Source: an uncultured bacterium (lineage in GTDB: Bacteria > Muiribacteriota > UBA6191 > CAZXTJ01 > CAYOHP01). Taken from it: a stretch of 64,000 bases of DNA. The notes beneath the pieces were generated by a model. That model had not been told where the DNA came from. It saw nothing but the letters and a program-made list of their open reading frames with translations, and did no database searches. Made by a program: the position numbers and the translations under genes. This document shows positions 3,233 through 54,099 of this stretch, one piece after another. Position 1 is the first letter of the stretch. Every line of letters starts with the position of its first letter. The stretch covers positions 1,821-65,820 of the forward strand of contig CAYOHP010000017.1 in the NCBI GenBank assembly GCA_964403795.1, in the 5' to 3' direction.

Positions 3233-3359
3233 CCCGGCCCAGGGTACCCCGGGCCATTCCCGGGCCTCCCGGGTGCGAGCGGGTCCATGGCACCCTGGGA
3301 GCGACCCGGAACGAGAGGCTCGAGTGTCCCGTCCCCCCCAGGATCCGTCGCCCCCGGCC

Positions 3360-9041: not shown

Positions 9042-9066
9042 GGCAGGCCTCCCGATGGGGTCCGGA

Positions 9067-20365: not shown

Positions 20366-20524
20366 GCGCCGAAGCGGGCACGCGCCGAATCAGTTCGGAC
20401 TCAAGATTGATTCGGGAGACCCTTCGGTCGCAGCGTCCGGGGCCCCGATGCGTGGTGGCACGCGCCTTGCCAGGTACGGCCTCGCTCCCTGCCCGACCGG
20501 CGGGAACGTACTCCTGGAGGCTCC

Positions 20525-21529
20525 ATGCGCATGTCCACCGCCGTCGGCGCCGGCGCCGTGATCCTGTCCCTCGCCCTGGTTCCCCTCGCGATCCAGCGGA
20601 TCGCCACCTTCCCGGCCGTGGTCGCCCACGTGGAGGCCGAGTGCCTGCCGGTCCCGGAGCCGAACTGGGACGGAGAGCAGGAGTTCCTGGCCTTCTGGAA
20701 GGCGCTGCCCGAGGACGGGTCCACGATGCCGGGTTTCCACGCCGCCCTGCTCGAGGGCGAGGCCGGTCCGGTCCGGGTCGCGGAGGCCCGGTCCTACCTG
20801 GAACTGCGGGAGCGGGAGGGGCTCTGGTACAGGTCAGGACCGAGCGACGACCCGCCGGGCAGGGACCCGGTGCTGGCGCGCCCGATCCCGGCGGGGATCC
20901 TCTGGACCTGGCCGAGCCCGACCCGGCGCAGCCCGGTCGGTGTCGCCTGGCAACTGGGTGCGGAGGCCGCCGCCTTGTTCCTGGCCGGGCGCGGCCGGGA
21001 GGGACTCGACGCCCTCGAAGTGGCCTATCGCTTCACCCGGATCGTGGGTCGCGGCCAGCATTCCACCCGCGACATGCTGCTGGTCCTGGGCGGGATCGAC
21101 GCCGCCCACCACCTCGATCGCCTGGTGCAAGTGCTGCTGCGCACCGACCTGGTGGCGGAGGACGAGCTGGGGCGCCTCCACTCGATCCTGGAGGACGACG
21201 CCACCCTCCGGGTCCGGCCCCATCACTGGCTGGATCGTGACCTCGAGTTCCGGCGCCGCGCCATCCGGCTGGTGGGGAGCTGGCTCGGACCCTTCGCCCC
21301 GATCGGGGACTGGTACTGGGGCGACTCGAACAGGCGGATCGCCACCATCCGGTACCGGTTCGCACAAGGGAACCCCATGGAGCGGAGCGAGCTCGCCGGC
21401 GCCCATCCGGTCTTCGCCTTCTTCCTCCCGAACCATGGCATGGCGCTGCGCTCCGAGGCGAGCGCGACCCGGATGCGGGACCGGATGCTCGCCACCCTGG
21501 TCCACCGCCGGCTGGCGCCGGGTAGGTGA
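20525..21529 (+). CDS. Hypothetical protein (N-terminal signal/TM anchor)
   Basis: 334-aa ORF with balanced composition (W/Y/F/H present) and hydrophobic N-terminus. The antisense ORF is Arg/Gly/Pro junk. No recognised motif. Confidence 0.4.
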   Translation: MRMSTAVGAGAVILSLALVPLAIQRIATFPAVVAHVEAECLPVPEPNWDGEQEFLAFWKALPEDGSTMPGFHAALLEGEAGPVRVAEARSYLELREREGLWYRSGPSDDPPGRDPVLARPIPAGILWTWPSPTRRSPVGVAWQLGAEAAALFLAGRGREGLDALEVAYRFTRIVGRGQHSTRDMLLVLGGIDAAHHLDRLVQVLLRTDLVAEDELGRLHSILEDDATLRVRPHHWLDRDLEFRRRAIRLVGSWLGPFAPIGDWYWGDSNRRIATIRYRFAQGNPMERSELAGAHPVFAFFLPNHGMALRSEASATRMRDRMLATLVHRRLAPGR

Positions 21530-21597: not shown

Positions 21598-22921
<1,324 letters not shown>

Positions 22922-22947
<26 letters not shown>

Positions 22948-24946
22948 GGTCGCGGCGCGCCGGGCGCGACTTCCCCTGGCCGCTCTGGACCGCCAGGAAG
23001 TGCGCGGTCCGGGCCTCGAGATCGGCCGACGAGGCTCCGCTCCTGAGTCGCGAGCCCCGGGAGGCGCGGAGCAGGGCCACGGCCAGCCCGGCCTGCTCGG
23101 CCCGCACCGGGGGAGCGCCCAGGATCCGGACGGGATCGAGGTAGGCGAGCTCCCCCAGCACCAGCTCGGGCCGACGATCGAGCTCGGAGGCGACCAGGGT
23201 CGCCACCCGGGATGCGTCGGTCTCGCCCGCCTCGACCGCCCGCGCCGCCCGGTAACAGGCCGACGCCAGGAAGCGACTCACCGGCTCCAGGGCTCGCGCC
23301 AGTTCGATCCGTCCCTGGCGGGTGGCCGCCAGGGTCCTGTGCTCCCTCAAGCCCAAGGTCAAGGGATTGCCGATCCCGCTCCCGACCGAGGAGGGACCCG
23401 GCCACCGGTCGGCGTCGAGTCCGTAGCCCTCGGCGAGCCGTCGCTCCACCGCCGCCAGCTCCTCCCGGGATCTCTGCAGGGCGTCGAGGGCACCCCCGGA
23501 CCAACCCCTGAGGAGGGTTCCCGCCACCAGTCCGGGATGGCCGGCCTGGTCGTCGGTGGTGGCCAGGGTGGCCCCGGTCGGCAGCGGCTCGACGAAGGCG
23601 AGCAGGGGATGTCCGAGGCCCGCCCAGGCCAACTCCTGGTCCACCTCCCGGAGGAGTTCGCGGGTCTCCCTGGCCAGCCGTTCCGGGCGTCCCCCCTCGC
23701 CGAGCCAGACATGGAATGCGACGATCGGGGGGGAACCGGCCAGGATGGATTCCCGCTCGGCGGGATCGAGTTCCGGGGGCCCGGGCGTAGCCGAGAGCCA
23801 ATCCCGGATCCCGCTCGCCAGTTCGAGGATCCTCTTGTCCTCGCCTTCATGCCGGGCGTCGATCGGGGCCTTGGGATCAGGGGCCGCCGCGGCCGTACCC
23901 GGAGCGCCAGGGTCCACCCACGACCAGGCCACCAGGCCGGCGAGCGCGAGGACCGCCAGCAGCGAGGAGACCTCGAGGGCACGCCATGGGGCGCGGCGCG
24001 TGGTGCGGAGCCCGGCCGAGCGCATGGGGACGCTGCGGGCCGATCGAAGGTCGCCTGGATCCCGAGTCCCGTGGTCGGATGCCCGGTCGCCACGACAGGC
24101 TTTCTCCAACAGCTCCCGGGCGATCCCGGCGTCCCGGGGCCGGTCCTCCCTCTCCTTCTCCAGGAGCGTCGCCACCCATGAGGCCAGACCGGGAGGGATT
24201 CGGGGGTCGACCCGATCGAGACGCGGCGGGACCAGGACGGCGTGGTTCTCGAACACCCGGTCGATGCGATCGCTGCGGAAGGGATTGGCGCCGGTCAGGA
24301 GCTCGTAGACGATCACTCCCAGCGCATAGAGATCGTCGCGGGGATCGGGTTCGGCTCCGGTGGCCTGCTCCGGGGAGGCGTAGGCCGGGGTCCCGAGGAA
24401 GCAGCCGCTGGCCGTGAGTCCGGTCTCGTCGGAGACATGGGAGAGCCCGAAGTCGATCAGCTGGACCGACCCGTCGGGGAGCACCAGGACATTGGCCGGC
24501 TTCAGGTCGCGGTGGACCACTCCTTCGCGGTGGGCAGCCCGGAGGCCGGACAGCAGCTCCTCGGCCAGACGTCGGACCGCCTCGATCTCCCAGGGTCCGT
24601 TCCCGAGGAGGGTATCGAGCGATCGTCCTCCCGAATCCGGGTAGGCCAGGAAGAGGACCGCTCCTTCCGCCCCGTAGTCGAGGATGCTCACGATGTTGGG
24701 GTGCTGGAGACGGGCGAGCACCCTGGCCTCGCGCAGGAACCGGGCGGCGAGCCGGGTCTCGCGGTCCTCGGAGACCTTCACGACCTTCAGGATCACGGAC
24801 CGGTCGAGGTTCGCCTGGCGGGCCCGATAGACCCGGGATGCCGCCCCCGTCCCCACCGGTACCAGGTCGAGGTACCTTCCCCGGATCCCGGTCGGCAACC
24901 CGCTCTGCTGCGCCTCGGCCAGGGCGTACCCGGATTCCCCGGTCAT
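22922..24946 (-). CDS. Ser/Thr protein kinase with TM helix and C-terminal extracytoplasmic domain
   Basis: Internal start MTGESGYALAEA, in frame with the 934-aa ORF. Motifs VGTGAASRVYRA, HRDLKPANVLV, DFGL, GTPAYASPE. TM helix (LLAVLALAGLVAWSW). 3' end overlaps the convergent sigma-54 activator gene by ~26 bp. Start overlaps the epimerase stop (ATGA). Confidence 0.8.
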
Positions 24947-25944
24947 GGCGGGATCCCCTGCCGGGAGGCCGGTGCCTCCCGCGGCACCGGTCCGGGGAGC
25001 CGGCCCGACCAGGCCAGGAAGCGCCGGACCCCCTCCTCGAACCCGACCCTCGGCCGGTACCCGTAGCGCGCCTCGGCCCGGTCGAGCGAGGCCCAGGTGA
25101 TCCCGGGCTCGAACGGACGTCCCGGCGAGGCCGTCACCGTCGCCTTGCGTCCGAGCAGCTCCTCGAGCACGGCCACCACGCGGGCCAGGGCGATGGGCCG
25201 ACCCGCACCGAGGTTCACGATCTCGAACCCTCCGGAGCCGTCCAGGATCCGCAACAGTCCGTCGACCGCGTCGTCCACATAGGTGTAGTCCCGCGCCGAT
25301 CCGGGATCGAAGAGCTCGATCGCCTGGCCCCGGACGATGGCCTCGGTGAAGCGGGCGATCGCCATGTCGGGACGCTGGCGGGGTCCGTAGACCGTGAACA
25401 GGCGGGCGCAGCAGAGGGAGAGCCCGCTCGGCGACGAGACCTCGCGGGCGACCCGCTCGGCGTCCCGCTTGGAAACGGCGTACGGCGAGAGCGGCCGATC
25501 GACCGGGAGCTCCTCCTCGAGCCGAGCACCTCCGGCGTCGCCGTAGACACTCGAGGACGAGGCATGGACCAGGCGCTCCACCCCGACCTCGACCGCCGCC
25601 TCGAACACGTTGCGGGCGCCCTCCAGGTTGACCGCCGCGCAGCCAGCGGGATCGAGGAAGCTGGCCGCCACCCCGGGTCGCGCCGCCAGGTGGACCACCC
25701 GCTCGGGCCGCCAGCGACGGAACCACTCGAAGAGCGGCTCCCGGTCACGGATGTCGAGTCGGACGAGTTCGAATCGGGGATGGGTCTGGAGGTCCGCGAG
25801 GTTGGACTCGAGGCGCGGCCTCTCCCCGGGAGGATCGAAGGCGTCCAGGCAGGCGACCCGATCGCCGCCGGACAGCAGGCGCAGGCAGAGGTGGCTCCCC
25901 ACGAAGCCCGCCCCGCCGGTCACCAGGATCCTCCGGCATCGCAT
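24943..25944 (-). CDS. NAD-dependent epimerase/dehydratase (GalE / UDP-sugar epimerase family)
   Basis: MRCRRILVTGGAGFVGSHL Rossmann motif. YAVSK (YxxxK) catalytic dyad. 333 aa. Confidence 0.8.
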   Translation of the reverse strand: MRCRRILVTGGAGFVGSHLCLRLLSGGDRVACLDAFDPPGERPRLESNLADLQTHPRFELVRLDIRDREPLFEWFRRWRPERVVHLAARPGVAASFLDPAGCAAVNLEGARNVFEAAVEVGVERLVHASSSSVYGDAGGARLEEELPVDRPLSPYAVSKRDAERVAREVSSPSGLSLCCARLFTVYGPRQRPDMAIARFTEAIVRGQAIELFDPGSARDYTYVDDAVDGLLRILDGSGGFEIVNLGAGRPIALARVVAVLEELLGRKATVTASPGRPFEPGITWASLDRAEARYGYRPRVGFEEGVRRFLAWSGRLPGPVPREAPASRQGIPP

Positions 25945-25971
25945 GGTTAGGCTCCCGATCCGCCGTCCGCC

Positions 25972-27873
25972 TCAGACCGCGGCCGCCAGGACCGCATCCT
26001 CGGCCGCGGCCTCGAAGCGATGGAGCAGGGCCGGGGAAGCCAGGGCGAGCGGCACCCAGCTCCCGTCCAGTTCCGCCATCCAGCCCCGCCGGACCGCCTC
26101 GGCGTAGGCCTGGCGCGAGGTCCGCGCCACCGGTCGCCGGACCAGGAGCCGACCGGCCTCTTCCGCCGAGAGGTCGATCCGCTCGGGTCCGAGGCCGAGG
26201 CCCCGGGTGTCGAGGAGCCGGAAGCCGGCTCCCTGCGCTTCGATCCGGAGCGTCGGAGGCTCGGCCCGGCTCCGGGCCCAGAGCGCCCTCCAGCTGGCCA
26301 CGGCCTGGCCGAGTTCCAGCATCAGCGGGCGGTTGCCGGGATCCAGCGCCGCGCTCGGGTAGGTACCGGTGAAGTGGTAGGCGATCCGGTCCACCGGGGA
26401 ACCGGGCGGGAACACGTCCCGGTACGACGCCAGGGGAGCCAGGCCGCTCACGCCATGCTCCTCGGCCCGGTCGAAATAGGGCGAGAAGCGGCTGACCATC
26501 ACCGGGACGATGGCCGGTGGCGGGAGGTGCCGGAGCCGAGGCACCAGTGCGAGGGTCTCCCGGTAGAACTCCACGAGGTCGTTGGGGAAGGCGACCAGCA
26601 GGTTCCAGTGCATGGCGATGCCGTAGGCCGAGGCGTAGCGCAGCGCCGCCACGTTCTGGGAGGCCGTCACCCCCTTGTCCATGAGGCGGAGCAGGCCCGA
26701 GGAGATGGCCTCGATCCCCGGCTGGATCGCGGTCACCCCGGCCTCCCGGAGCAGCCGCACCTTCTCCAGGGTGAGGTTCGACTTCTGCTCGTACCCGATC
26801 TCGAGCCCCGGGAGCTCCCCGGCTAGGCGCGGCAACAGGGTGCGGAAGTACTGGTGCGGCATGATGTTGTCGGTCATGGCGATGCGCCGGGTGGGGCTCG
26901 CGGAGACCAGCGTGCGGAGTTCGTGGACGACCTTGTCGGGGGACTTCTGGCGGAACCCCATCCCCTCGCCGTTCAGTCCGCAGAAGGTGCAGTGGCGCTT
27001 CTGCCCCCACCAGCAGCCCCGGCTCGATTCGTAGGGGATCCAGAGCTGCCCGGTCCTCGCCGCCTCGCTCCCGGGCAGGAGCCGCTCCAGGGCCCCGTGG
27101 AACTCCGAGAAGTCGGTGGTGGGGAGGGCCTCGAGATCGCGGCACGGCTCCCCGACCAGGATCCTCGGCGAAGGCTCGCCCCGGGCGCGCCGGGCGAGGA
27201 AGTCGGTGAAGGTGGCCTCGCTCTCCCCCGAGAAGACGTGATCGACCCAGGGCGCCACCGCCGCGATCCCCTCGCCCATGGCGGCTTCGCAGTTGGCACC
27301 CCCGATCAGGGTGAGGATCCCGGGACGGCGTCGCTTCACTTCCCGGAGCAGCGCCAGCGAGGCCCCGGTCTGTTCGAAGGTCGAGGTGCAGCCGACCACC
27401 TCGGGGTCGCCGGCGAGGATCGCGTCGACCGCCCCCGGGATCCAGGCGTGGGCCCGGGCCTCGAGGTCAAGGAGCAGGGACCGGGCCTGGTCGGGAGCCA
27501 CCACCCTGCCTCCCTCCCGGGCCAGCCAGGCCACGAACTCGGCCAGGATGCGTTCGCCCCCGTCGGCGCCCAGGGGCGGGAGGTCATGGGCCGCCCGGGC
27601 GAAGAGCCGCTCGCCGGCCAGCCAGGCCAGCGCCATGTGCTCGAAGTTGGCGTACTGGCGTTCGCCCAGACGGGCGGCCAGGGAGAGGTTGGCGTACTCG
27701 ATCCGGACCCGGTGGCCGGCGGCCCGGGCACAGGCCTGGAGGACATGCACTCCCAGCGAGGGGCGATCCAGGCTCCCGAAGGGCGGGACCACCAGGACGA
27801 CGGGAGCGGATCCGGGCCCGGGCCGCGAAGCCGCCGGCTGGATCCGGTCGGAAGGCATGCCGCGAGGGTACAC
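25972..27873 (-). CDS. B12-binding-domain radical SAM protein with non-canonical CX7CX2C cluster motif
   Basis: N-terminal cobalamin-binding-like Rossmann region. SRGCWWGQKRHCTFCGL in place of CxxxCxxC. Radical-SAM core follows. 633 aa. Confidence 0.7.
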   Translation of the reverse strand: MYPRGMPSDRIQPAASRPGPGSAPVVLVVPPFGSLDRPSLGVHVLQACARAAGHRVRIEYANLSLAARLGERQYANFEHMALAWLAGERLFARAAHDLPPLGADGGERILAEFVAWLAREGGRVVAPDQARSLLLDLEARAHAWIPGAVDAILAGDPEVVGCTSTFEQTGASLALLREVKRRRPGILTLIGGANCEAAMGEGIAAVAPWVDHVFSGESEATFTDFLARRARGEPSPRILVGEPCRDLEALPTTDFSEFHGALERLLPGSEAARTGQLWIPYESSRGCWWGQKRHCTFCGLNGEGMGFRQKSPDKVVHELRTLVSASPTRRIAMTDNIMPHQYFRTLLPRLAGELPGLEIGYEQKSNLTLEKVRLLREAGVTAIQPGIEAISSGLLRLMDKGVTASQNVAALRYASAYGIAMHWNLLVAFPNDLVEFYRETLALVPRLRHLPPPAIVPVMVSRFSPYFDRAEEHGVSGLAPLASYRDVFPPGSPVDRIAYHFTGTYPSAALDPGNRPLMLELGQAVASWRALWARSRAEPPTLRIEAQGAGFRLLDTRGLGLGPERIDLSAEEAGRLLVRRPVARTSRQAYAEAVRRGWMAELDGSWVPLALASPALLHRFEAAAEDAVLAAAV

Positions 27874-27910
27874 GAGGGCCGGCTCCCGGGACCGGATCCG
27901 AGCGGCCGGA

Positions 27911-28372
27911 TCAGCCCGGTTCGGGTGACGCTGCGCCCAGCTCCCACTCCAGGTTGCGCTTCACTCCCGCATCCATGCGGATGAGCCGCGCCCAGCCGGG
28001 ACGGAACACCCAGAACCTGTGCCCGGCAGCCGCCGCGACCATGGGAGCGGCCATCGGGAAGCGCGAGAGGTAGAGCCTCGTCAGCTCCGCCTGCCGATCC
28101 GGCGGAGCCTCGGCGCGACCGGAGAGCTGGACCCCCCGGATCGAGGCGACACCCGGGTCGGACTCCGCGATCGCCACCCCGGCACGCGGCTCGCCGACCA
28201 GATCGCGCGAGTGCCGGGTCGAGTCGGCGCTGATCCACACGAGTTCGAGACTGCCGGCGGCCCGGGCGAAGAACAGGGACGCGGCATGGGGACCGGCTCC
28301 GCTCCAGGTCGAGAGGTGGAGCACATGGTGGCGGTCGAGGTACTCGTGGAGAGGTTGCAGGTCGTCCGCCAT
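27911..28372 (-). CDS. Pyridoxamine 5'-phosphate oxidase-like FMN-binding split-barrel protein
   Basis: Internal start MADDLQPLHEYLDRHHVLHLSTWSGAGPHAASLFFA. PNPOx/general-stress-protein-26 fold pattern. ~153 aa. The upstream part of the 488-aa ORF is junk. Confidence 0.55.
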   Translation of the reverse strand: MADDLQPLHEYLDRHHVLHLSTWSGAGPHAASLFFARAAGSLELVWISADSTRHSRDLVGEPRAGVAIAESDPGVASIRGVQLSGRAEAPPDRQAELTRLYLSRFPMAAPMVAAAAGHRFWVFRPGWARLIRMDAGVKRNLEWELGAASPEPG

Positions 28373-28389
28373 GGCGCCGGATCCGGGTC

Positions 28390-29409
28390 TCAGCGTTGAC
28401 CGAGCGTGCCGGAGTCGGTCCCGTGGGACCCGGGTCGGGTCGCGGGCACTGTGCCCACCGGCGCACCGCCGGGCTGGAGCCCGGCCGCCTGCCTGGCGAG
28501 CCAGTCCTGGCGAGCCTTGGCCACCTTGGCCCGGACCCTCCGGATCCACTCGTTGTCCAGGGTGTTCAGGCGCCGGAGCAGCTCCGCCAGGTCGGCGGGC
28601 GGATCGAGTCCGAGGATCCCCCGGTACATCTGGAGTTTCAGCCAGTCCCGGCCTGCTTCCTGCCAGTGGACGTAGGCCGGGCCACTGATCCCGCTCGACT
28701 GGAACATGGCCTCGTCGTAGACGCTGGCGTACCCGAACCGGATCCTCAAGATCCGCTGGTCCCAGCCGCTCTGGGTATCGGCCGGGGGGAGGAAGAGGGT
28801 GCTGCCCCAGCGGGCGGCCTCGGCGGCATCCCTCGGCTTCCCCCCTGCGAACACGGTGTTGTAGAGCACCAGGTCGTCGACGGCCTCGAAGACCTGCATG
28901 ATCGACTTGCCCATGAAGTAGCCGCAGACCTCGTCGGCCTTCATCCGGGGATAGCGGGCCAGACCCAGGAAGCGGTGGTTGGGATCGTGGTAGAGGTCGG
29001 CCCAGATCGACTGCATGGAGTCGTAGTGGATCCGTTCCGGGGTGCCGGCGGCGGCCGTCTCGCTGGCCATGACGTCGTTGTCGGCATGGGTGAGCTCGTG
29101 GATCAGGGTCGCGATCTGGGTCGTCTCGAGGGCGAACTTGATGCGCTGGGTGCCTTCCACCCGCATGGTGGGGGGGATGTAGACATTGTCTGTGAGGTAT
29201 CCGTAGGAGGCCTCGGCGACGTCGGACGACGCCTGGAAGAAGAGCTCGATCTTCGCTACCAGGCGTCTCAGGTACTCGGTCTTCAAGCCGATCGACTCGA
29301 GCCGGGTGTAGAACTCGGCCGGATCGGCCTCGTCGCCGGCCCTGGCACCGGAACCCAAGGCCAGGAGTCCTGCACACACCAAGGCCTGGACCCGACGGAG
29401 CGAACCCAT
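28390..29409 (-). CDS. Secreted hypothetical protein with HExxH (HELTH) zinc-metallopeptidase-like motif
   Basis: Internal start MGSLRRVQALVCAGLLALGSGARAG (signal peptide). HELTHADND motif. Realistic composition. Confidence 0.5.
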   Translation of the reverse strand: MGSLRRVQALVCAGLLALGSGARAGDEADPAEFYTRLESIGLKTEYLRRLVAKIELFFQASSDVAEASYGYLTDNVYIPPTMRVEGTQRIKFALETTQIATLIHELTHADNDVMASETAAAGTPERIHYDSMQSIWADLYHDPNHRFLGLARYPRMKADEVCGYFMGKSIMQVFEAVDDLVLYNTVFAGGKPRDAAEAARWGSTLFLPPADTQSGWDQRILRIRFGYASVYDEAMFQSSGISGPAYVHWQEAGRDWLKLQMYRGILGLDPPADLAELLRRLNTLDNEWIRRVRAKVAKARQDWLARQAAGLQPGGAPVGTVPATRPGSHGTDSGTLGQR

Positions 29410-29487
29410 GGAGACCTCCCGAGGGACGCAGCGAGTGTAGCGTTCCGGAGGCCGCATCCGATCACGGGTTCGCCGACGTGAGGCGAC

Positions 29488-31872
29488 TCACCGTCGGGCC
29501 AGGCGCAGCTCCACCAGCAGGGGCAGGTGGTCCGAAGCCAGCCGGGTCAGGCGGTTCCTGGGTACCTCGACGGCCACCACCTCGACCTCCGGCGACACGA
29601 AGACGTGGTCGATGCGTCGCACCGGCAGGGCCGCGGTCCAGGTCGGCAGCGGGCGGTGACCCGAGAGGCCGACCTGGACGTCCCGGAGCCGGCGGGGAGG
29701 CCGTCCCGCCAGCATTCCCGGCTTCATGGCGTTGAAATCCCCGGCCAGGACCAGGGGTGCCTCGGCCTGCGGATCCCCCAGCCACTCCGGGCCGAGCAGG
29801 GCCTCGGCCTGGACCCGGCACTCCTCGGGGTGGAGCCCGAAGTGGGTGTTCAGGAGCTGGACCCTGGCCCCGTCGACGTCGAGCTCCACCCAGACCGCAC
29901 CCCGCGGCTCGCTCCTCGCCCCGGGGCGACGTCGGGGCAGGGCACCGGCCCGGACCAGCCGCATCGGGAAGCGGCTGATCACGGCATTGCCGTACTCCTC
30001 CTCCTCGATCCGGAAGCTGGCATGGAAGTGATGGAACATGGCCAGCCGGTCGGCGATCTCCCGGGCCTGGTGCAGGCCATTGCTGCGGGACCGGCCCACG
30101 TCGAGTTCCTGGAGGGCGATCACATCGGGATCGAGCGAGGAGAGCACCCGGGCGATGCGATCGCTGGAGACCCTGCCGTCGCTGCCGCGGCAGCCGTGGG
30201 CGTTGTAGGTGACGATCCGCAGCGTCTCGGGTCTGCGCTCGCCGGTCCGGGGCGGAGGCGGACGGGAGGGAGCCAGGCGGGAGAGATGGGCCAGGGCCTC
30301 CTCCCGGAGGTCACCGGCGCGCAGGACCCGCCCCGGATCCCGGTGCAGCAGGCACCCGGGGGGCAGCATCGCGAAGGCCAGGGTCTCCTCCGGGGAGAAC
30401 CCGGCATGCGAACCATGCTCGGCCGCGAAGGTGACGGGTGCGACGCCCGGAGCCCACCCGGAGAGGACCAGCTCCCCGGCATCGGGATGCCGCACCAGCG
30501 CGGCCAGGTCGCCCGGGACCGCGGTACCGAAGGGGTGGTCGGCACCCAGTACCGGGAGCGGATCAGCTTCGAGATCGAAGACCCCGGCGCGGGATCGCAC
30601 CCGGATGCGGTCCTCCCCATCCCGCCAGAGGACCTGGGGGATCGCGAACTCCTCCACCAGCCGCGCCGCCACCTGCTCCCGCGCCCCGGGGGCCAGCGAG
30701 GGCTCCGGGTGGACATGTCCCAGTGGCCCCAGGGCCGCCAGGGTGAACCCAGGGCCGGTCTCGGCCTGGTCCTCGTCCTGGCCGAGGAGGCGGGCCATCC
30801 AACCCACCCCGCTCCACAGCACCCGCCCCGTCTCGGAACCCCGGTGGACCCCGGAACCCGGTGCCCTCGGGGCCTGGGAGAGCGCTTCCTCCACGGCCTC
30901 GGCCAGGGTCCGGCCGGCGACCAGCGGGTAGGGACGGGCGTCGTCCTGGCCGTGGTCGGAGTGGATCCAGACCTCGTAGTCGCGCCGGGCCGAGCGCCAG
31001 GCGCTCTTGGCCAGGCGTGCCACCGCATGGTCGATGGCCCCGAGGCTCCACTGGGCGAAGCGCGACCCGGGCCCGCGTCGGTGGGCCTGCTCGTCGAACC
31101 CGATCAGGTTCACGTGGACCACCGGGAGACCGCGAGCCAGGTCCATCCGGGCCGAGCGCACCGTGAACTCGCGCATCGCCACGCACAGGAGCGCCCTCGC
31201 CAGCACGAAGCGCAGCTCGGCGCCCGCGTCATGGCCCTCCCGGACGCCGTGCAGGGCATCCCAGAGCCCGACCAGCAGTTCCACCACGACCATGCCCGCG
31301 GTCCGTAGCGCCACCAGGCCATGGACCAGGACCAGGGCCAACAGCCGCAGCGGGGACAGCGCGGTCAGCAGGGACCCGAAGCCGAAGGAGGCCGCGCACA
31401 GGTGCGGCTCGGCGGCGCCGCCGGTGAATACGTCGCCATAGGCGGATCCGCCCGCCAGCAGGCCTTCCCTGCCGTCCGCGAGTCGGACCTCGACCCGGGC
31501 CGCGGTGGCCGGCAGGTACATCTTCTCCAGCGCCCCGGTGTCATGGTCCCGGAACCCGAAGCCCGGGACCGCGGTGCGGACCCCGTAGAAGAGTTCGCCC
31601 TGGAAGGCCGGGGTCGAGGCCGGGCACCCGCTGTAGAGGCTGTGCAAGCGGTAGCCGTCGCGCTGGAGCAGGCGGGCCGTGAAGGGCATCCGTCCCTCTC
31701 CCAGCGCCCTTTCCAGATGCGTCTTCCCGAGTCCGTCGATCTGGATCACCAGCAGGCCCGGCTCGATCCCGCTGCCGGGATCGCGCGGCAATCCCAGGAG
31801 CGCCACCATCCATTCGCTGGGATCGAGGAGCCGGACCAGCCTGCGGACCTGGGCCTCGAGCCGGGCGAGCAT
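29488..31872 (-). CDS. Two-domain membrane protein: type I phosphodiesterase/nucleotide pyrophosphatase (AlkP-superfamily) domain + endonuclease/exonuclease/phosphatase (EEP) domain
   Basis: N-terminal region LLVIQIDGLGKTH...SGCPASTPAFQGELFYG...VWIHSDHGQDD (PF01663-like). Hydrophobic segments. C-terminal EEP (LRIVTYNAHGCRG, DVIALQELD, SDHLPLLVEL). Confidence 0.65.
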   Translation of the reverse strand: MLARLEAQVRRLVRLLDPSEWMVALLGLPRDPGSGIEPGLLVIQIDGLGKTHLERALGEGRMPFTARLLQRDGYRLHSLYSGCPASTPAFQGELFYGVRTAVPGFGFRDHDTGALEKMYLPATAARVEVRLADGREGLLAGGSAYGDVFTGGAAEPHLCAASFGFGSLLTALSPLRLLALVLVHGLVALRTAGMVVVELLVGLWDALHGVREGHDAGAELRFVLARALLCVAMREFTVRSARMDLARGLPVVHVNLIGFDEQAHRRGPGSRFAQWSLGAIDHAVARLAKSAWRSARRDYEVWIHSDHGQDDARPYPLVAGRTLAEAVEEALSQAPRAPGSGVHRGSETGRVLWSGVGWMARLLGQDEDQAETGPGFTLAALGPLGHVHPEPSLAPGAREQVAARLVEEFAIPQVLWRDGEDRIRVRSRAGVFDLEADPLPVLGADHPFGTAVPGDLAALVRHPDAGELVLSGWAPGVAPVTFAAEHGSHAGFSPEETLAFAMLPPGCLLHRDPGRVLRAGDLREEALAHLSRLAPSRPPPPRTGERRPETLRIVTYNAHGCRGSDGRVSSDRIARVLSSLDPDVIALQELDVGRSRSNGLHQAREIADRLAMFHHFHASFRIEEEEYGNAVISRFPMRLVRAGALPRRRPGARSEPRGAVWVELDVDGARVQLLNTHFGLHPEECRVQAEALLGPEWLGDPQAEAPLVLAGDFNAMKPGMLAGRPPRRLRDVQVGLSGHRPLPTWTAALPVRRIDHVFVSPEVEVVAVEVPRNRLTRLASDHLPLLVELRLARR

Positions 31873-31875
31873 GGC

Positions 31876-33219
31876 TCAATCCCTCCGGTCCGGGACGGTT
31901 CCGGCATCGCCGGGGGAGCCGCGCTCGGCGTCCGTACCGGAGATCCCCAGGACTCCCGAGAGGGCGCTGGCGGTGGCCGCCGCCATGTTCCCCCAGAGCT
32001 CGAACTCGGCCTCCGCTCCGCGCAGGAGCACGTCCCAGAGGCCTTCCTCCTCGGGGTCGCGCAGGAAGCGATGGGCCTCCACCAAGGACCCGTAGCAGGC
32101 CAGGGCACGGTCGGCCGTGGCCTCCACCGAGAACTCCCGGGCCGTCGCCCGCGCCGCTTCCCGGAGCCCTTGTCGGGCTTCCTCGGGAGCCGCCAGCATC
32201 GCCAGGAGCGCCTGGGTCATGGCCTCGGGCGCGCTCGCCGCCGGGAGCAGCCTTCCGTTCTCCCCATCCCGCACCACCTCGCGCACCCCATGGGCGTCGA
32301 GGGCCACCACCGGCGTCCCGGCCGCCATCGCCTCGGTCAGGACCATGCCCTGGGTCTCCGAGAACGAGGAGAACGCGAAGACATCGGCAGCCGCGTAGGC
32401 ATCGGCCAGCTCCCCGCCGCGGAGCACGCCGAGATGGTGGTAGCGGTCCGCCACGCCCGCCTCCCCCAGGATGCGCTCGACCTCCGGGAGCGAGGATCCT
32501 TCCCCGACGAGCACGAAGCGGGCGTCCCGTCGCCGGGCCAGGCAGGCGGCCACCGCCCTGGCCAGGAAGCCGAGGTTCTTCTCGGGCGCCAACCTCCCCA
32601 CATGGGCGATCACCGGGACGGTCGCCGGCAGGCCCATCTCGCGCCGGAACCGCGCCCGGTCTCCGGCCCCGAACACGGACAGGTCGACCCCCGTCGGCAC
32701 CACCTCGATGGGACGCCGCACGCCGCCTGCCGCGAGATCCCGGGCCACGCTGGCGCTGGGTGCGAAGACCAGGTCGGAGAGGTTGGCGTAGCCGCGGGTC
32801 AGGTCGCGCACGAAGACCCCCAGCGCCTCCGAGTCGCCCGGTGCGTAGTGGGTGTAGTGCTCGAAACGGGTGTGGTGAGTGAAGACCAGCGGCAGGTCGC
32901 GACGGCCCGCCAGGCGCAGGGCCGCGTCCCCGAGCAGGAACGGGTGGTGGGAGTGGACCAGATCGGGCGCGAAGTCCCCGAGCGCCAGGTCCAGGTACCC
33001 GGGCACCGGGAGCGAGAGCGAGAAGCTCGAGTCGAAGACGTCGGGGATCGCCGGGAAGCGGATCACGTCGGTCTCGTCGCCCGGGTCGCCGGGGTACTCG
33101 GGGGCCAGTACCACGACCCTGTGCCCGCGCCGGCGGTACTCGCGGGTGAAGCGGTCGACCGAGTTCGCCACCCCCCCGACGTGCGGAAGGTAGGTGTTGG
33201 TGACCATGAGCAGGTTCAT
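31876..33219 (-). CDS. Glycosyltransferase family 4 (GT-B fold)
   Basis: Internal start MNLLMVTNTYLPHVGGVANSV. GT4 C-terminal E-x7-E region (FSSFSETQGMVLTEAMAAGTPVVA). 4-bp overlap with the upstream glycoside hydrolase gene. Confidence 0.75.
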   Translation of the reverse strand: MNLLMVTNTYLPHVGGVANSVDRFTREYRRRGHRVVVLAPEYPGDPGDETDVIRFPAIPDVFDSSFSLSLPVPGYLDLALGDFAPDLVHSHHPFLLGDAALRLAGRRDLPLVFTHHTRFEHYTHYAPGDSEALGVFVRDLTRGYANLSDLVFAPSASVARDLAAGGVRRPIEVVPTGVDLSVFGAGDRARFRREMGLPATVPVIAHVGRLAPEKNLGFLARAVAACLARRRDARFVLVGEGSSLPEVERILGEAGVADRYHHLGVLRGGELADAYAAADVFAFSSFSETQGMVLTEAMAAGTPVVALDAHGVREVVRDGENGRLLPAASAPEAMTQALLAMLAAPEEARQGLREAARATAREFSVEATADRALACYGSLVEAHRFLRDPEEEGLWDVLLRGAEAEFELWGNMAAATASALSGVLGISGTDAERGSPGDAGTVPDRRD

Positions 33220-35537
33220 CCGCCAGGCTCCCGTATCGCCTCGACCTCGCCGACCGCCAGCTCGACCTCGAGGGGGTGGTGCCCGGGGAGAACCACCCGG
33301 GCCCGCTCCCCGGCCGCCTCCCGGAGCCCGGACCAGCGCACCCGGGTGGACCCGAGCCCCGCCTCGACCTCGACCGAGAGGGCACCGTAGGGCGTGGCGG
33401 TGGGACCGAAGGCGAGCCGGGTCCCTGGCCGCGTCCACTCTTCGCGGAGGCCGGCGCCGAGCCGCAGCCCGTCGGGCTCCTCGATCACGAACAGGGCCCG
33501 CATCATGAGCACCCACTCGGCCGAGGCCCAGGCGTGGTGGCCGTCCCCCATGCAGCCCCCCAGGGTCCGGGGATGGGCGGCCTCGGGCCACTGCCCGGTG
33601 GGCGAAGCCAGCGCCGCCACCGCGTCGACCAGGGGAAGCGCGCGGAGATCTCCGGCCCGGAGCAGGGCCTCGGCCATGTGCAGGGTGAGGTAGGCATTGA
33701 GACCGGAGTGGATCATGTCCTGGAAGAAGAGACCCTTCACCATGCAGTGGTCGAGCAGGTACCCGAGGGTGGCGATCAGGCGCGGGTCGTCGGGAGGATA
33801 GAGACCGAGCGGATACCAGGCGGCCAGGGAGCCGATGGCCCCCGCGTCCATCCGCCGCCCCGGTGCGGCGGGGACTCCCGGCCTTCCCCCTCGGGCTGCG
33901 ACCTTGGCCAGGGCGCGATCGACGGCCGAGCGGAACCGTCTCGCCTCCTCGGCGAACCGGGCTGCGCCGGTGCGGTCCCCATGCACCGCCAGCAACCAGG
34001 CGGCGGCGTCGAGACCCGCCACGCCCCAGAAGTCGTCCCAGAAGTAGTGGTCGTTGGGGCCCAGGTGCTCGGCGCTGAAGCCGGCCGGGAGGAGCCCCGC
34101 GTGGGGCTCGGGGAGGTCGTCGGGGAGGCGCTTGCCCACGATCCAGTCGCCGGCCTGCCGCACCGAGTCGAGGAGCGGGGCGTCGAGCCGGGCACCCGAG
34201 AGTTCGACGTGGCGGCGCAGGATCCACAGCGCCTCGCCGTTCGAATCCCACTCGCCCTCCTGGGAGAGGAAGTAACCGTCCCGCCCCTGGCGCTCCGGGA
34301 AGCGCTTGAGGCCGCGGGCCACCCGGTCGTCGTGGCCGAGCACCGCGAGGGCGTGGAGCAGGAAGGCCGAGTCGCGGAACCAGAAGCGCCGGTAGGTGTA
34401 GGGACCCGGGTAGGCCTCGCCCGGGGAGAGCAGCACCAGGGTCCGCTCGGCGGCGGTGAAGAGCTCGACGAAGCGGGGATCGGGGACCTCGAGACGACAG
34501 CGTCCGAGGCGGGGCGAGGCCCAGGATCCGAGGGTGAACCCGGGCTCGGGGGCCTCGTCCCGGGGCAGCACCACCGAGGCCTCCAGGCTGCGTTCGGACC
34601 CCGGAGCCAGCCGGAACATGGCAGCTGCGGTGGCGAGGCCCACCGGGCACTCGACCGAGGTCCGCTCCCGCGGGTCGGCGAGGTGGAGGTAGACGTCGCC
34701 GGAGCGGTAGTCGGAGGCCTCGTGGCGTTCGACCGGCTCCGAGAAGCGGACCTCGACCGCGTCGTCGACCGACCAGGCGCGCCGGTCGTCGGCCAGCCGC
34801 ACCGAGTGGACGAAGCTCACGCCCTCGGGATTGGCGGGCCGGAGCGCGACCACCAGCCAGCCGGCGGCTTCGGATCCCGCGGTGACGCGCAACCGGAACC
34901 TGGCTTCGGTCCCGGAGGCCTCGACCCACCCCCGGGTGGCGAGCCGGCGGGTCGCGTCATGGGTGCGGGTGACCACCGCCATCCCGGGGTCGGTCTCCAG
35001 CCGCTGCTCGGCCGCCGCGGCCCGGGAGGGGAGCAGGATCCCTGCATCGTCCTGCACCCAGGCGTCGAGCGACCAGCCGTCGTAGAGCGGGGTCGCCAGG
35101 CCCCGGGGATCCAGGATCGGGTAGAGCGGGCAGTCGGGCAGGCCGACCGCGGTCCAGTTGCGGTGGGTCAGGTTCACGTGGGTGATCGAGAAGGCCCGGG
35201 GCACGAACGACTCGTCCTCGGGATCGAACTGGCGCTCGACCCAGTACGGCCAGACCCAGTCGAGGTTGTGCTGGATCGCCTTGGTGTTCACGAGGCCCCG
35301 GGCGTGGAACACCACCCCGGCCCGGAGCAGCTCGATCGGCTCGCGGACCTCGCTCGGCTGGGCGAAGCCCTCGAGGCGGGCGAGCAGGGCCACCGGATCC
35401 AGGAACCCGTGCGACTCGGCCAGCTTCCGCAGCAGCCAGCGCCACGGCATGAAGCGTCGCCACGCCACCGTCGCCTCCCATGGGAGGGTATACCTCCGGG
35501 CCGCTCCCTGGCGGATCACGCGCAGTCTGGACTCCAT
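33216..35537 (-). CDS. (alpha/alpha)6-barrel glycoside hydrolase (GDE_C / GH15-GH63-like)
   Basis: Internal start MESRLRVIRQ. ~773 aa with six-hairpin glycosidase-like regions (DGYFLSQEGEWDSNGEALWIL, GLFFQDMIHSGLNAY). The exact GH family is not assignable by eye. Confidence 0.55.
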   Translation of the reverse strand: MESRLRVIRQGAARRYTLPWEATVAWRRFMPWRWLLRKLAESHGFLDPVALLARLEGFAQPSEVREPIELLRAGVVFHARGLVNTKAIQHNLDWVWPYWVERQFDPEDESFVPRAFSITHVNLTHRNWTAVGLPDCPLYPILDPRGLATPLYDGWSLDAWVQDDAGILLPSRAAAAEQRLETDPGMAVVTRTHDATRRLATRGWVEASGTEARFRLRVTAGSEAAGWLVVALRPANPEGVSFVHSVRLADDRRAWSVDDAVEVRFSEPVERHEASDYRSGDVYLHLADPRERTSVECPVGLATAAAMFRLAPGSERSLEASVVLPRDEAPEPGFTLGSWASPRLGRCRLEVPDPRFVELFTAAERTLVLLSPGEAYPGPYTYRRFWFRDSAFLLHALAVLGHDDRVARGLKRFPERQGRDGYFLSQEGEWDSNGEALWILRRHVELSGARLDAPLLDSVRQAGDWIVGKRLPDDLPEPHAGLLPAGFSAEHLGPNDHYFWDDFWGVAGLDAAAWLLAVHGDRTGAARFAEEARRFRSAVDRALAKVAARGGRPGVPAAPGRRMDAGAIGSLAAWYPLGLYPPDDPRLIATLGYLLDHCMVKGLFFQDMIHSGLNAYLTLHMAEALLRAGDLRALPLVDAVAALASPTGQWPEAAHPRTLGGCMGDGHHAWASAEWVLMMRALFVIEEPDGLRLGAGLREEWTRPGTRLAFGPTATPYGALSVEVEAGLGSTRVRWSGLREAAGERARVVLPGHHPLEVELAVGEVEAIREPGG

Positions 35538-35655
35538 CTTGATTCCCGAGTCCAGGGGGAAGGCGGCCAAGCCGCGCCCGGAGCGGCTCTCCCCGGTCGG
35601 CACGGGCCGTGCGTGGCCCCAGGGCGGAAGGGGCCCAGGCCCCGCGGAGGTCACC

Positions 35656-37125
35656 GTGCCGTTTCGTCCGTTCCATCCCCGGACCGTTCCCCTGCGGGTC
35701 GGGGCCCTGCTCCTGGCCTGCGTGGGACCGGTCACCGCCGAGCGCCACCTCATGCTCGCCAACCAGGGTCGGGAACCTCTCTGCGTGGAGGGGACGAGCG
35801 TGCGGGGAGGCGTCGCCCCCGGCGCCTGGCAGGAACCCTCGGGGGGACGCCCCCGGCCCGACCTGGAATGCCGCTACCTGGTCGAGCCGGGGGAACGGAT
35901 CGAGTTCCTGCGCACCAACTGGGACCAGGGCGTCCCCGACGGCTCCTCCTCGTGGTTCTCGACCCGGGTCCGGAGCGTCGACGGCGAGCGGATCGAACTC
36001 GCCCACAAGCTGGACGGCGAGACCATCGGCAGCAACCTCTGGCGCCGGGTCGGAGGCTCGACCTGGGTCGACGACGACGCCCCCCGGACCCACGCCTGGG
36101 TGAGGCGGGACGGGGCGGCGCCGATCGAGGTGGTGGTGGACGGGCGGCGGGTCGAGTACCGCTTCGGAGCGGTCCGGCCAGTGCCGGCGACGACGGATCC
36201 CGAGGGCTTCCGGGTGCTGGCCTTCAATGCCGCGCTGCTGCCGGCCGGGGGCACCGGGGTCGAGGCCCGCGCCGCCCGATTGGCCGAGGTGCTCGGTGGC
36301 CATGACGCCCTGGTGCTCTCGGAGCTCTTCGCCGACGACGCCCGGGAGCGGCTGCTCCGCGATCTCTCGCCCGAGTACCCCTGGCAGACCTCGGTGCTGG
36401 AGGACGACGATCCCCTGGCCCAGGACGGCGGGGTGGTGATCGTCTCCCGCTGGCCCATCCTCCACCAGGCGGAGCACTTCTACACGGGAGGAGTGGGCAC
36501 CGATTCCCTCTCGGCCAAGGGCGCCATGGTGGCTTCGATCCGAGGACCACAGGGGATCCTCCACCTGGTGGGGACCCACACCCAGTCCGACGCCGACGGC
36601 TGGGCCGATTCGGTGATCGACGGGATCGCCTTCCCCGGAGTCTTCACCCGGCCTGCGCCTGCCGCGGTGCGGGACCGCCAGTTCCGGTCGCTGGAGGCGT
36701 TCCTGGCCGGCCTCGGCCTGCCGGAGGACGAGCCCCTGGTGATCGCCGGGGACCTGAACGTGGCCAGGGCCTCGACCCGGGAGTTCGAGGCCATGCTCAG
36801 AACCCTCGGGGCGGTCGAGCCGGCGGGCGACCGGGAGGGACCGACCTGGGATCCGGGCAACGAGCTCGTCGCCGACGGGGACCGGCCGGCCCGCCTGGAC
36901 TACCTGCTGGTCTCGCTCCGCCACCGGGGCATCGACCCCGCGGCCTCCCGGACCGAGGTGGTCCGGCTCAGGTCCCCGACGCCCTGGGACGGGTCGCGGA
37001 CCGACCTCTCGGACCACTACGCGGTGTCGACCCGGCTTCAGTTCGCAGGGGGGAAGTCGGCCGCCGCGTTCCCGGCTGGCCCGGAGGGAGCCGACTCGGG
37101 CGGCTTCCTCGGGCAGGGGGAATAG
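35656..37125 (+). CDS. Secreted endonuclease/exonuclease/phosphatase-family protein (sphingomyelinase/phosphodiesterase-like)
   Basis: Putative GTG start giving signal peptide MPFRPFHPRTVPLRVGALLLACVGPVTA. EEP motifs (FRVLAFNAAL, VLSELF, GTHTQSD, IAGDLNVARAS, LSDHYAVS). Divergent from the glycan operon. Start uncertain (alternative upstream ATG at ~35449). Confidence 0.6.
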   Translation: MPFRPFHPRTVPLRVGALLLACVGPVTAERHLMLANQGREPLCVEGTSVRGGVAPGAWQEPSGGRPRPDLECRYLVEPGERIEFLRTNWDQGVPDGSSSWFSTRVRSVDGERIELAHKLDGETIGSNLWRRVGGSTWVDDDAPRTHAWVRRDGAAPIEVVVDGRRVEYRFGAVRPVPATTDPEGFRVLAFNAALLPAGGTGVEARAARLAEVLGGHDALVLSELFADDARERLLRDLSPEYPWQTSVLEDDDPLAQDGGVVIVSRWPILHQAEHFYTGGVGTDSLSAKGAMVASIRGPQGILHLVGTHTQSDADGWADSVIDGIAFPGVFTRPAPAAVRDRQFRSLEAFLAGLGLPEDEPLVIAGDLNVARASTREFEAMLRTLGAVEPAGDREGPTWDPGNELVADGDRPARLDYLLVSLRHRGIDPAASRTEVVRLRSPTPWDGSRTDLSDHYAVSTRLQFAGGKSAAAFPAGPEGADSGGFLGQGE

Positions 37126-38164: not shown

Positions 38165-38896
38165 TCAGGTCCTCTCGTTCTGGACCTCCTCGAGGCGGCG
38201 GTACAGGAGCTGGAAGCGCTCCTCGTCGTTGTAGCCGAGCCGCTCGGCCTCGTCGGCCACCATCTGGATCAACGGCCGGTACATCTCGCCGAAGCGCTCG
38301 GTCTGGAACCGGATGAAGTCGGCCTTGGGGACGGTCTCGCCGGCCCCGGAGAGTCCGGTGTCCCGGGCTGCGGCATTGGTGATGTCCTCGAGCATCTCCT
38401 CCCGCTCCTTGGCGGTGAGCGACCGGCCGAGCTGGCGCTCCCGCTCGGCGATCCGCTCCCGGGCACGCCGCATCGCGCCCTGCAGGTCCTCGGGCACGCC
38501 GTTGACCCGGACGAGGGCCTCGCACTCCGAGAGCACCTGGCGGCTGCCGGCCTCGGCGGCCTCGATCAGGCACTCCTTGGTGGGGATCCGGACGCCGTCC
38601 CTGGGGCTCAGGCGATCCGGGTCGGTGAACCCGTTGGCGGCCGCCAGCAGGTCGACCAGACCACCCTGGCCCCAGAGAGGCAGATCGGTGCGGCCGATGT
38701 CCCGGCGGACCTTCTGGGCGATCTCGCCCAGGGTGTCGCCCCGCATCACCAGGGCGCCGTTGCCCACGGCCTCTCCGCCCTCGATCTGGTCGGAGGACAC
38801 GAAGGCCGGAGCCGAAGTGATGCGTCCGGGATCGACCGGGGCGGTGCCCAGGCCGCAGTCCATGCCCATCCCGAGCAGGTTGGCGTCGCCTTCCGT
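38165..38896. repeat. Segmental duplication copy A (3' ~730 bp of LysM gene A)
   Basis: Nucleotide-level similarity to 39800..~40531 visible by eye (e.g. gaagcgctcctcgtcgttgtagcc / gaagcgctcgtcgtcgttgtaacc; gccgaagcgctcggtctggaaccggatgaagtcggccttggg). Extent approximate. Confidence 0.6.
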
Positions 38897-39501: not shown

Positions 39502-39517
39502 AGCAACGCCCGTGCCA
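39502..39517 (-). promoter_or_regulatory. Sigma-54 (RpoN) -24/-12 promoter upstream of LysM gene A
   Basis: Minus-strand sequence TGGCACGGGCGTTGCT matches TGGCACG-N4-TTGCW at every constrained position. ~55-70 bp upstream of the GTG start. Coordinates may be off by 1-2. Confidence 0.65.
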
Positions 39518-41760: not shown

Positions 41761-41776
41761 TGCAACCCCCGTGCCA
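41761..41776 (-). promoter_or_regulatory. Sigma-54 (RpoN) -24/-12 promoter upstream of LysM gene B
   Basis: Minus-strand sequence TGGCACGGGGGTTGCA matches TGGCACG-N4-TTGCW exactly. ~50-65 bp upstream of the start at 41713. Confidence 0.65.
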
Positions 41777-53998: not shown

Positions 53999-54099
53999 GC
54001 TGCGGGTGGTGGATTCGCTCACCCCGCCATTGCACCAGAGGGCCGGTGCCATCGCAATTCCGCTCTGCCGCGTCCCAGGTCGCCCGTACACTCGTCCCG

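Follow-up and report, generated by a model that had tools for sequence, protein, structure and literature searches.

Whether eight tightly packed genes encode a single pathway is the question raised by a 64-kb window (64,000 nucleotides, G+C 72%) of contig CAYOHP010000017.1 from an uncultured Muiribacteriota bacterium. In the minus-strand run of eight consecutive, co-directional genes at 22922-35537 (12.6 kb, Table 1), the gene for a putative cobalamin-dependent enzyme of the radical S-adenosylmethionine (rSAM) type lies among genes for glycan- and phosphodiester-related proteins, and a first-pass annotation of the window had proposed that this enzyme modifies the glycoconjugate which its neighbors would produce. 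The analysis presented here leads us to favor, with somewhat better than even confidence, a different answer: the string combines functionally separate units, co-directional and tightly packed, in a mosaic, and the rSAM enzyme is a methylase of the type acting on peptides which are synthesized ribosomally and modified post-translationally (RiPPs), with its substrate encoded elsewhere.

Results

Organization of the gene string

Genes were called from third-position GC content (GC3) and frame analysis. The string was found as first annotated, including two 4-bp ATGA overlaps which are both present in the sequence: the start of the glycosyltransferase (GT4) gene overlaps the stop codon of the upstream glycoside hydrolase (GH)-like gene at 33216-33219, and the stop codon of the short-chain dehydrogenase/reductase (SDR) gene overlaps the start of the kinase gene at 24943-24946. 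The remaining gaps are of 3, 78 (or 30), 17, 52 (or 37) and 27 nt. Scans with σ70 and intrinsic-terminator consensus sequences, which have little power at this G+C content, revealed no internal promoter or terminator. Pfam and NCBIfam assignments agreed with nearly all of the earlier domain calls, namely the Ser/Thr kinase, the SDR epimerase, Radical_SAM with B12-binding, PNPOx_N, Exo_endo_phos (the endonuclease/exonuclease/phosphatase, EEP, domain) with Phosphodiest, and GT4.

Family assignment of the radical-SAM protein

The rSAM protein matched the NCBIfam model TIGR03975, "RiPP maturation radical SAM C-methyltransferase", with 523 bits (cutoff 281.85, E 1e-156), the match extending over residues 20-567 and model positions 1-553 of 606. 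No sugar, lipid, hopanoid or phosphonate B12-rSAM model of NCBIfam reached its cutoff: TIGR04072 (lipid rSAM) scored 44 bits (cutoff 360), PhpK 41 (600), HpnJ 38 (578) and HpnR 31 (650). Comparison with hidden Markov models (HMMs), which had been suggested as a way to separate RiPP-type enzymes from lipid or sugar methylases, therefore places the protein with the former. The Pfam B12-binding model PF02310 scored 31.1 bits (E 2.3e-7), just under its gathering score of 32.1, over a region which also lies inside the TIGR03975 match. More than 4200 homologs were found, one of them with 63% identity. They are called RiPP maturation radical SAM C-methyltransferase in every source giving a name, and the annotated plasmid-borne homologs all bear this same family name. 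A PDB sequence search with the protein gave no match.

The sequence SRGCWWGQKRHCTFCG was confirmed in the protein, as was the CX7CX2C spacing which the first-pass annotation had reported. The protein contains seven cysteine residues in total, and the three of this motif, C282, C290 and C293, are conserved at 100% among 120 homologs; the pattern CWWGxxxHCTFC was present in 120/120 of the best homologs and CX3CX2C in 0/120. Judged from this alignment the cysteine triad is genuine and no alignment artefact, the alternative which the earlier annotation had raised. The same annotation had singled out the spacing as unusual for an rSAM enzyme, a view which did not hold up. It is the norm in TIGR03975 and has been reported for PoyB, PoyC and the bottromycin methyltransferases (PMC5682303; PMC11285071) as well as for the clavusporin-pathway enzyme MpcB (bioRxiv 10.1101/2024.01.23.576971), and RadicalSAM.org lists a CX7CX2C megacluster (PMC9477430). 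Since CX7CX2C is a published hallmark of the TIGR03975 family, the motif is neither new nor unexplained. On these sequence criteria the protein is a predicted class B (cobalamin-dependent) C-methyltransferase and an ordinary member of the TIGR03975/PoyC/MpcB family.

By analogy with this family, the [4Fe-4S] cluster bound by CX7CX2C would reductively cleave SAM to give a 5'-deoxyadenosyl radical, and this radical would remove a hydrogen atom from an sp3 carbon that is not activated, in the typical case the Cβ of a Val, Ile, Thr or Pro residue of a peptide. Methylcobalamin would then pass its methyl group to the resulting substrate radical and be regenerated at the expense of a second SAM. PoyC has been reported to yield 5'-deoxyadenosine along with S-adenosylhomocysteine (PMC5682303).

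Genomic context of related rSAM enzymes

The neighbors of rSAM relatives were compared with those in the window by tblastn at 77 loci, of which genomes supplied 34, metagenomes 41 and exact look-ups 2. Homologs of the PNPOx-like, HExxH, nucleotide pyrophosphatase/phosphodiesterase (NPP)/EEP, GH-like and epimerase proteins were found at 0/77 of these loci, and an unrelated GT4 gene was located approximately 5 kb from the rSAM gene at 1/77. The only neighbor of the window rSAM gene to recur was the kinase.

What these loci do encode is consistently related to peptide maturation. An open reading frame (ORF) of 65-85 aa for an NHLP-clan precursor was observed beside the rSAM gene in at least 19 of the 77 loci, directly upstream in most (Table 1), and classical NHLP precursors were also present in loci L014 and L054. 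The relatives' precursors have a conserved leader, which the NHLP-clan models TIGR04509, NF038399 and TIGR03793 match below threshold, and end in a short core with many β-branched residues (for example RPGIVIEIRISIRF, KIGISITITIRF, VSIRIRVCVGVTF and GIIAVLIGL). Relatives with 50% identity to the window protein occur on one contig (L001/L083) together with several TIGR03975 paralogs, and at 2350-9959 of L083 two tandem paralogs lie directly beside a 560-aa CefA RiPP precursor and a TIGR04463 rSAM/SPASM maturase. At L036, whose rSAM protein is 61% identical to that of the window, the rSAM gene and a 2OG-Fe(II) oxygenase gene overlap at the start of the former. Scans of genome and metagenome contigs returned no rSAM relative above approximately 50% identity.

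Some further features of these loci were noted. The cores GIVIEIRISIRF, KIGISITITIRF, HIHINIVISISAD and VSIRIRVCVGVTF are amphipathic and reminiscent of clavusporin-type surfactant peptides. The CefA protein in L083 is a 'Cys-every-fifth' repeat (GCAAEGCxADGC...) in a large RiPP-like cluster, and a third TIGR03975 paralog, a 2OG-Fe(II) oxygenase gene and a ThiF-like gene are found a few kb from it.

To look for a precursor in the window itself, an NHLP-type HMM made from 12 of the relatives' precursors was run against the six-frame translation of the 64 kb (best E 7.3), and each of the 223 ORFs between 30 and 130 aa long was searched with NCBIfam, which gave 0 matches at E <=0.01. The intergenic gaps contained no small high-GC3 ORFs, and regular-expression searches of the window found no I/V/T-rich or alternating C-terminal tails; nor were Cys-repeat (CefA-like) patterns present in it. 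Other RiPP machinery was likewise absent from the Pfam annotation of approximately 45 of the approximately 52 window genes. With no precursor detected in the 64 kb, the rSAM enzyme is therefore an "orphan" there.

Among known systems the rSAM protein is likened, through the family model and the motif, to the polytheonamide Cβ-methyltransferases PoyC and PoyB, which belong to the same TIGR03975 family and share its predicted N-terminal B12-binding domain, radical-SAM core, C-terminal extension and CX7CX2C motif. The Poy enzymes, however, adjoin an NHLP-type precursor, PoyA, and tailoring genes, none of which lie within the 64 kb around the window rSAM gene. MpcB of Streptomyces clavuligerus, another B12-rSAM enzyme with CX7CX2C, introduces β-methyl groups at Val, Ile, Thr and Pro residues of a short, hydrophobic peptide (bioRxiv 10.1101/2024.01.23.576971), and the cores of the relatives' precursors, such as GIVIEIRISIRF, are similarly rich in β-branched residues; the mpc operon differs in that it encodes a 39-aa precursor together with a DUF5825 partner, an S9 peptidase and a transporter, whereas the window rSAM gene has no such genes at its side. 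An S9-family hydrolase is encoded at 4795-6531, approximately 20 kb away, and no link between it and the rSAM gene is made here. The two-gene cassettes of NHLP precursor and TIGR03975 enzyme in Acidobacteriota/Terriglobia metagenomes (L007, L016, L045-L049, L055 and others) encode rSAM proteins of the same length and motif with 41-47% identity to ours, and differ in carrying the precursor gene beside the rSAM gene, mostly directly upstream, where the window has the PNPOx-like gene.

The GH-like/GT4/phosphodiesterase module

The product of the first gene of the string had no Pfam or NCBIfam match even at E <=10 and no PDB sequence match. An AlphaFold (AF2) model built with 38 homologs had a predicted local distance difference test (pLDDT) value of 78.6 and a predicted template-modeling (pTM) score of 0.83, and Foldseek aligned it with GH94 phosphorylases, GH15 glucodextranase/glucoamylase and GH65 enzymes (E 1e-14 to 1e-9, probability 1.0, TM score approximately 0.5) at 9-14% sequence identity. 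The predicted fold is a β-sandwich with an (α/α)6 barrel. The earlier name, six-hairpin glycoside hydrolase, is thus supported as to fold by the model, while membership of a defined GH family could not be established by sequence. Homologs of this family of approximately 750 aa number more than 4000, with 53-59% identity, across phyla which include Gammaproteobacteria and Nitrospinota. The family is without a Pfam model.

The order GH-like, GT4, Phosphodiest/EEP is kept in Kineobactrum salinum, Methylomarinovum tepidoasis and a 122-kb metagenome contig (loci L037, L038 and L085). The window GT4 is 52-56% identical to the syntenic GT4 proteins of L037 and L038; its best NCBIfam matches, all sub-cutoff, were MshA, GlcN-PG synthase and MGlcDAG synthase. 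The Phosphodiest/EEP protein is 46-48% identical to its syntenic counterpart in L037 and is split into two genes in L038, being fused in 2 of the three comparison genomes and split in one. The GH-like and GT4 genes overlap in ATGA fashion in L037 and L038 and are 3 nt apart in L085. None of the other five genes of the string was present at the module in these genomes, so that the module occurs without the rSAM gene in 3/3 of them. The synteny comparison which the first-pass annotation had called for consequently told against its proposal, as the module is separate in 3/3 genomes and the neighbors of the rSAM gene, the kinase apart, recur in 0/77 of the relatives' loci.

The modules of the gammaproteobacteria K. 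salinum (CP048711) and M. tepidoasis (AP024718), with the same gene order and 46-58% identity, are preceded by a VTT (DedA) gene, as is the third, but in the window a divergent sphingomyelinase-like lipoprotein gene stands in that place, and tblastn of the window with two VTT proteins gave nothing better than E approximately 1. A gene of 328 aa which follows the module in L085 was considered as a possible HExxH homolog and rejected as unrelated. A keyword search of the literature on the GH-like/GT4/EEP module returned nothing relevant.

Because of the GH15/GH94-like fold, a GT4 near MshA, GlcN-PG and MGlcDAG synthases and a protein combining alkaline phosphatase (AlkP)-type and EEP phosphodiesterase domains, we read the module as one of membrane glycoconjugate or glycolipid type, with a probable role in making or altering a glycolipid or phosphoglycan of the membrane. 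The glycan reading of the first-pass annotation is therefore retained for its first three genes, and the action of the rSAM enzyme on that glycan is not.

The HExxH, PNPOx-like and SDR proteins

The HExxH protein had been annotated as secreted, in agreement with the 14 aligned homologs, in all of which a signal peptide is present and H104, E105, H108 and E160 are invariant. The family is rare, with 17 homologs among 5.8 billion cluster representatives, and a PDB sequence search with the protein gave no match. Its signature is gluzincin-like (H-E-x-x-H...E). The gene for a 71%-identical homolog (L080, 10001-11910) is translationally coupled to that of a UbiE-type class I methyltransferase and the Elusimicrobia copies adjoin an NlpC/P60 gene; neither an rSAM gene nor the glycan module was present in the homolog contexts L080-L082. 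The HExxH gene is thus rare and independently placed.

The PNPOx-like protein exceeded the PF01243 cutoff of 28.1 bits and had a sub-cutoff match to PRK03467 (E 1.7e-11). It might, as a matter of speculation, serve as electron donor or reductant for the rSAM enzyme. No equivalog-level NCBIfam match was obtained for the SDR protein.

Ser/Thr kinases and FHA-σ54 activators

The kinase encoded at the end of the string consists of a catalytic domain, one transmembrane (TM) segment and an uncharacterized C-terminal domain of approximately 350 aa. The 3' end of its gene overlaps by 26 nt the convergent gene for an FHA-domain σ54 enhancer-binding protein (EBP). A second pair of FHA-EBP and Ser/Thr kinase (STK) genes, in divergent orientation, lies elsewhere in the window (Table 1), and such STK/FHA-EBP pairing is typical of Myxococcota. 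Because of the 3' overlap with the activator gene, a pairing seen twice in the window and three perfect σ54 consensus sites nearby, the kinase more plausibly acts as the STK of an FHA-EBP signaling pair with the convergent activator. Of the perfect σ54 consensus sites (TGGCAC-N5-TTGC, Table 1), one is upstream of the gene at 20525-21529, which precedes the FHA-σ54 activator gene, and the others are upstream of 38165-39448 and 39800-41713. The latter two genes encode secreted proteins which are paralogs of each other and match LysM weakly.

Among the rSAM relatives an orthologous STK-TM-TPR protein of approximately 800 aa is encoded directly upstream of and co-directional with the rSAM gene in 8 loci (L006, L008, L023, L043, L051, L052, L057 and L078), and 7/8 of the rSAM proteins concerned form one clade. 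In at least 4 of these loci (L008, L043, L051 and L078) the rSAM gene is followed by one for a methyltransferase-like protein of approximately 220 aa with TPPY/FSGSGN motifs. No precursor peptide was detected in the STK-TM-TPR/rSAM loci. At L036 a convergent Ser/Thr kinase gene abuts the rSAM gene. A C-terminal domain shared between the window kinase and rSAM-adjacent kinases elsewhere was considered and rejected, since the catalytic domain alone aligns.

One pathway or several units

A single pathway of all eight genes, in which the rSAM enzyme would C-methylate or rearrange a sugar or lipid moiety of a glycoconjugate made by the GT4, SDR and phosphodiesterase proteins, would fit the co-directional layout, in which two pairs of genes overlap by ATGA and no gap exceeds 78 nt, the lack of a precursor peptide in the window and the position of an SDR sugar epimerase/dehydratase gene directly downstream of the rSAM gene. 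Class B rSAM enzymes as a class also include sugar, lipid and phosphonate methylases. We nevertheless consider a single shared pathway very improbable because comparative synteny splits the string: the glycan module occurs without the rSAM gene in every comparison genome, the 77 loci of rSAM relatives contain no GH-like, NPP-EEP, PNPOx-like, HExxH or SDR gene, and the rare HExxH gene, which divides the two parts in the window, is found in unrelated contexts elsewhere. The lipid, hopanoid and phosphonate models moreover gave only 31-44 bits (cutoffs 360-650) against 523 for the RiPP family. C-methylation of the glycoconjugate by the rSAM enzyme, as originally proposed, finds no support in the TIGR03975 assignment or in these same two sets of loci; the rSAM protein maps to a well-characterized family with a function unrelated to its neighbors, an outcome which the first-pass annotation itself had named as counting against its proposal.

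The recurrence of kinases beside rSAM genes would be accounted for if the enzyme belonged to a kinase-coupled, precursor-less subtype, acting together with the receptor kinase on a protein substrate or being controlled by it, outside a classical RiPP pathway. A kinase gene abuts the rSAM gene in the 61%-identical L036, the STK-TM-TPR gene is upstream in 8 loci with most of their rSAM proteins in one clade and a methyltransferase-like gene following in at least four, and no precursor was detected in those loci. However, with 5 STK genes among approximately 52 in the window such nearness is expected by chance, similarity of the window kinase to the others is confined to the catalytic domain, the SDR gene sits between it and the rSAM gene, and the FHA-σ54 activator, in a pairing which occurs twice in the window, is the more obvious partner. 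We consider this arrangement unlikely. It is highly doubtful that the gene was left behind when a RiPP cluster was lost or moved elsewhere and now has no substrate: although the 64 kb contain neither a precursor nor a protease/transporter pair nor any other RiPP gene, and each of the relatives examined has different neighbors, the ORF, with a GC3 of 0.92, is intact, all family-invariant cysteines are kept and the match to the family model is full-length. RiPP precursors are, in addition, often encoded far from their tailoring genes. Together with the 61%-identical relative, the window rSAM protein forms a small clade without detectable precursor. There is a slim chance that in this lineage the enzyme has left RiPP maturation and C-methylates a non-RiPP substrate, which could be a folded protein, modified jointly with the adjacent receptor kinase, or a glycolipid or phosphoglycan of the GT4/SDR/phosphodiesterase genes.

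We therefore return to the mosaic of separate units. In this arrangement the GH-like, GT4 and Phosphodiest/EEP genes would form a widely conserved membrane glycoconjugate/glycolipid module, the rare secreted HExxH gene would be an independently placed second unit, and the rSAM enzyme, of PoyC/MpcB type, would constitute a third, while the translationally coupled SDR and receptor kinase genes would be a fourth, the kinase signaling to the convergent FHA-σ54 activator. The substrate of the rSAM enzyme would, in our moderately confident estimate, be a peptide or protein encoded outside the 64-kb window. Weighing against this reading are the failure of all five search routes to detect a precursor peptide in the 64 kb and the lack of a visible precursor in L036, the closest relative with locus context (61% identity). 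The tight packing (at most 78 nt) with no internal terminator detected also leaves room for co-transcription with the glycan genes, and we know of no characterized enzyme from the exact clade of the rSAM protein.

Other features of the window

The secreted EEP-family phosphodiesterase gene which the first-pass annotation had placed divergently from the start of the string is indeed found there, with a GTG start preceded by GGAG, a PF03372 match and a lipobox (LLAC) in its product. No σ54 consensus was found upstream of the eight-gene string. A σ54-like site at 35598-35612 (+) with two mismatches, CGGCAC-N5-CGTGC, in which the GG/GC core is kept, lies 44 nt upstream of the GTG start of this divergent gene.

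A second radical-SAM gene, lysine 2,3-aminomutase-like (9067-10428), is located in a minus-strand group at 6572-10428, followed by two genes for ATP-grasp proteins of D-Ala-D-Ala-ligase type (8028-9041 and 7048-8058) and a GNAT acetyltransferase gene (6572-7072). The group may be a cluster for a β-lysine-derived metabolite or osmolyte.

Table 1. Positions of features in the window and, where a locus handle is given, in comparison loci
Feature	Position	Strand	Match or remark
Receptor-type Ser/Thr kinase	22922-24946	-	Pkinase, E 1.3e-42
NAD-dependent SDR epimerase/dehydratase	24943-25944	-	PF01370, E 2.3e-55
B12/radical-SAM protein	25972-27858	-	TIGR03975, Pfam Radical_SAM and B12-binding; alternative GTG start 27873
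CX7CX2C codons in rSAM gene	26980-27015	-	C282-X7-C290-X2-C293 (CWWGQKRHCTFC), predicted [4Fe-4S] ligands
PNPOx-like FMN-binding split-barrel protein, YhbP-like	27911-28372	-	PF01243, 32 bits
Secreted HExxH (zincin-like) protein	28390-29409	-	Alternative start 29457
Membrane Phosphodiest (alkaline-phosphatase superfamily) and EEP phosphodiesterase fusion	29488-31872	-	PF01663 and PF03372
GT4 glycosyltransferase	31876-33219	-	Pfam Glyco_transf_4 and Glycos_transf_1
(α/α)6 GH15/GH94/GH65-like protein, ~773 aa	33216-35537	-	AF2 model and Foldseek; start uncertain, ATG 35537 here and 35603 in database copy
EEP-family lipoprotein, sphingomyelinase-like	35656-37125	+	PF03372; TIGR03395 E 2.9e-33, sub-cutoff
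FHA-domain σ54 enhancer-binding protein	21598-22947	+	Pfam FHA, Sigma54_activat, HTH_8
FHA-EBP/STK pair, convergent	21598-24946
FHA-EBP/STK pair, divergent	52691-56148
Ser/Thr kinases of the window (five in ~52 genes)	3-1433, 2718-4739, 10507-12864, 22922-24946, 54100-56148
Perfect σ54 consensus	20456-20470	+	TGGCAC-N5-TTGC
Perfect σ54 consensus	39503-39517	-	TGGCAC-N5-TTGC
Perfect σ54 consensus	41762-41776	-	TGGCAC-N5-TTGC
(α/α)6 gene elsewhere	L037 10001-12253; L038 10001-12211; L085 7001-9244
Short NHLP-clan precursors beside TIGR03975 rSAM genes	L007 9706-9942; L016; L049; L069; L055 7633-7953; L045-L048
Short NHLP-clan precursors beside TIGR03975 rSAM genes	L059/L060/L065; L013/L063; L034 11777-11989
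STK-TM-TPR then TIGR03975 rSAM	L006 7450-12400; L008 7454-12515; L023; L043; L051; L052; L057; L078		Acidobacteriota-type contigs

Discussion

The locus is a caution that tight co-directional packing at 72% GC is insufficient to establish a shared pathway. The motif for which it was flagged is diagnostic of TIGR03975, a family with thousands of members already named, and carries little weight as a discovery. Receptor kinases, instead of precursors, are the fixed neighbors of these peptide methylases in some lineages. The GH-like family, together with GT4 and the AlkP/EEP phosphodiesterase, may mark an uncharacterized and widespread membrane glycoconjugate pathway.

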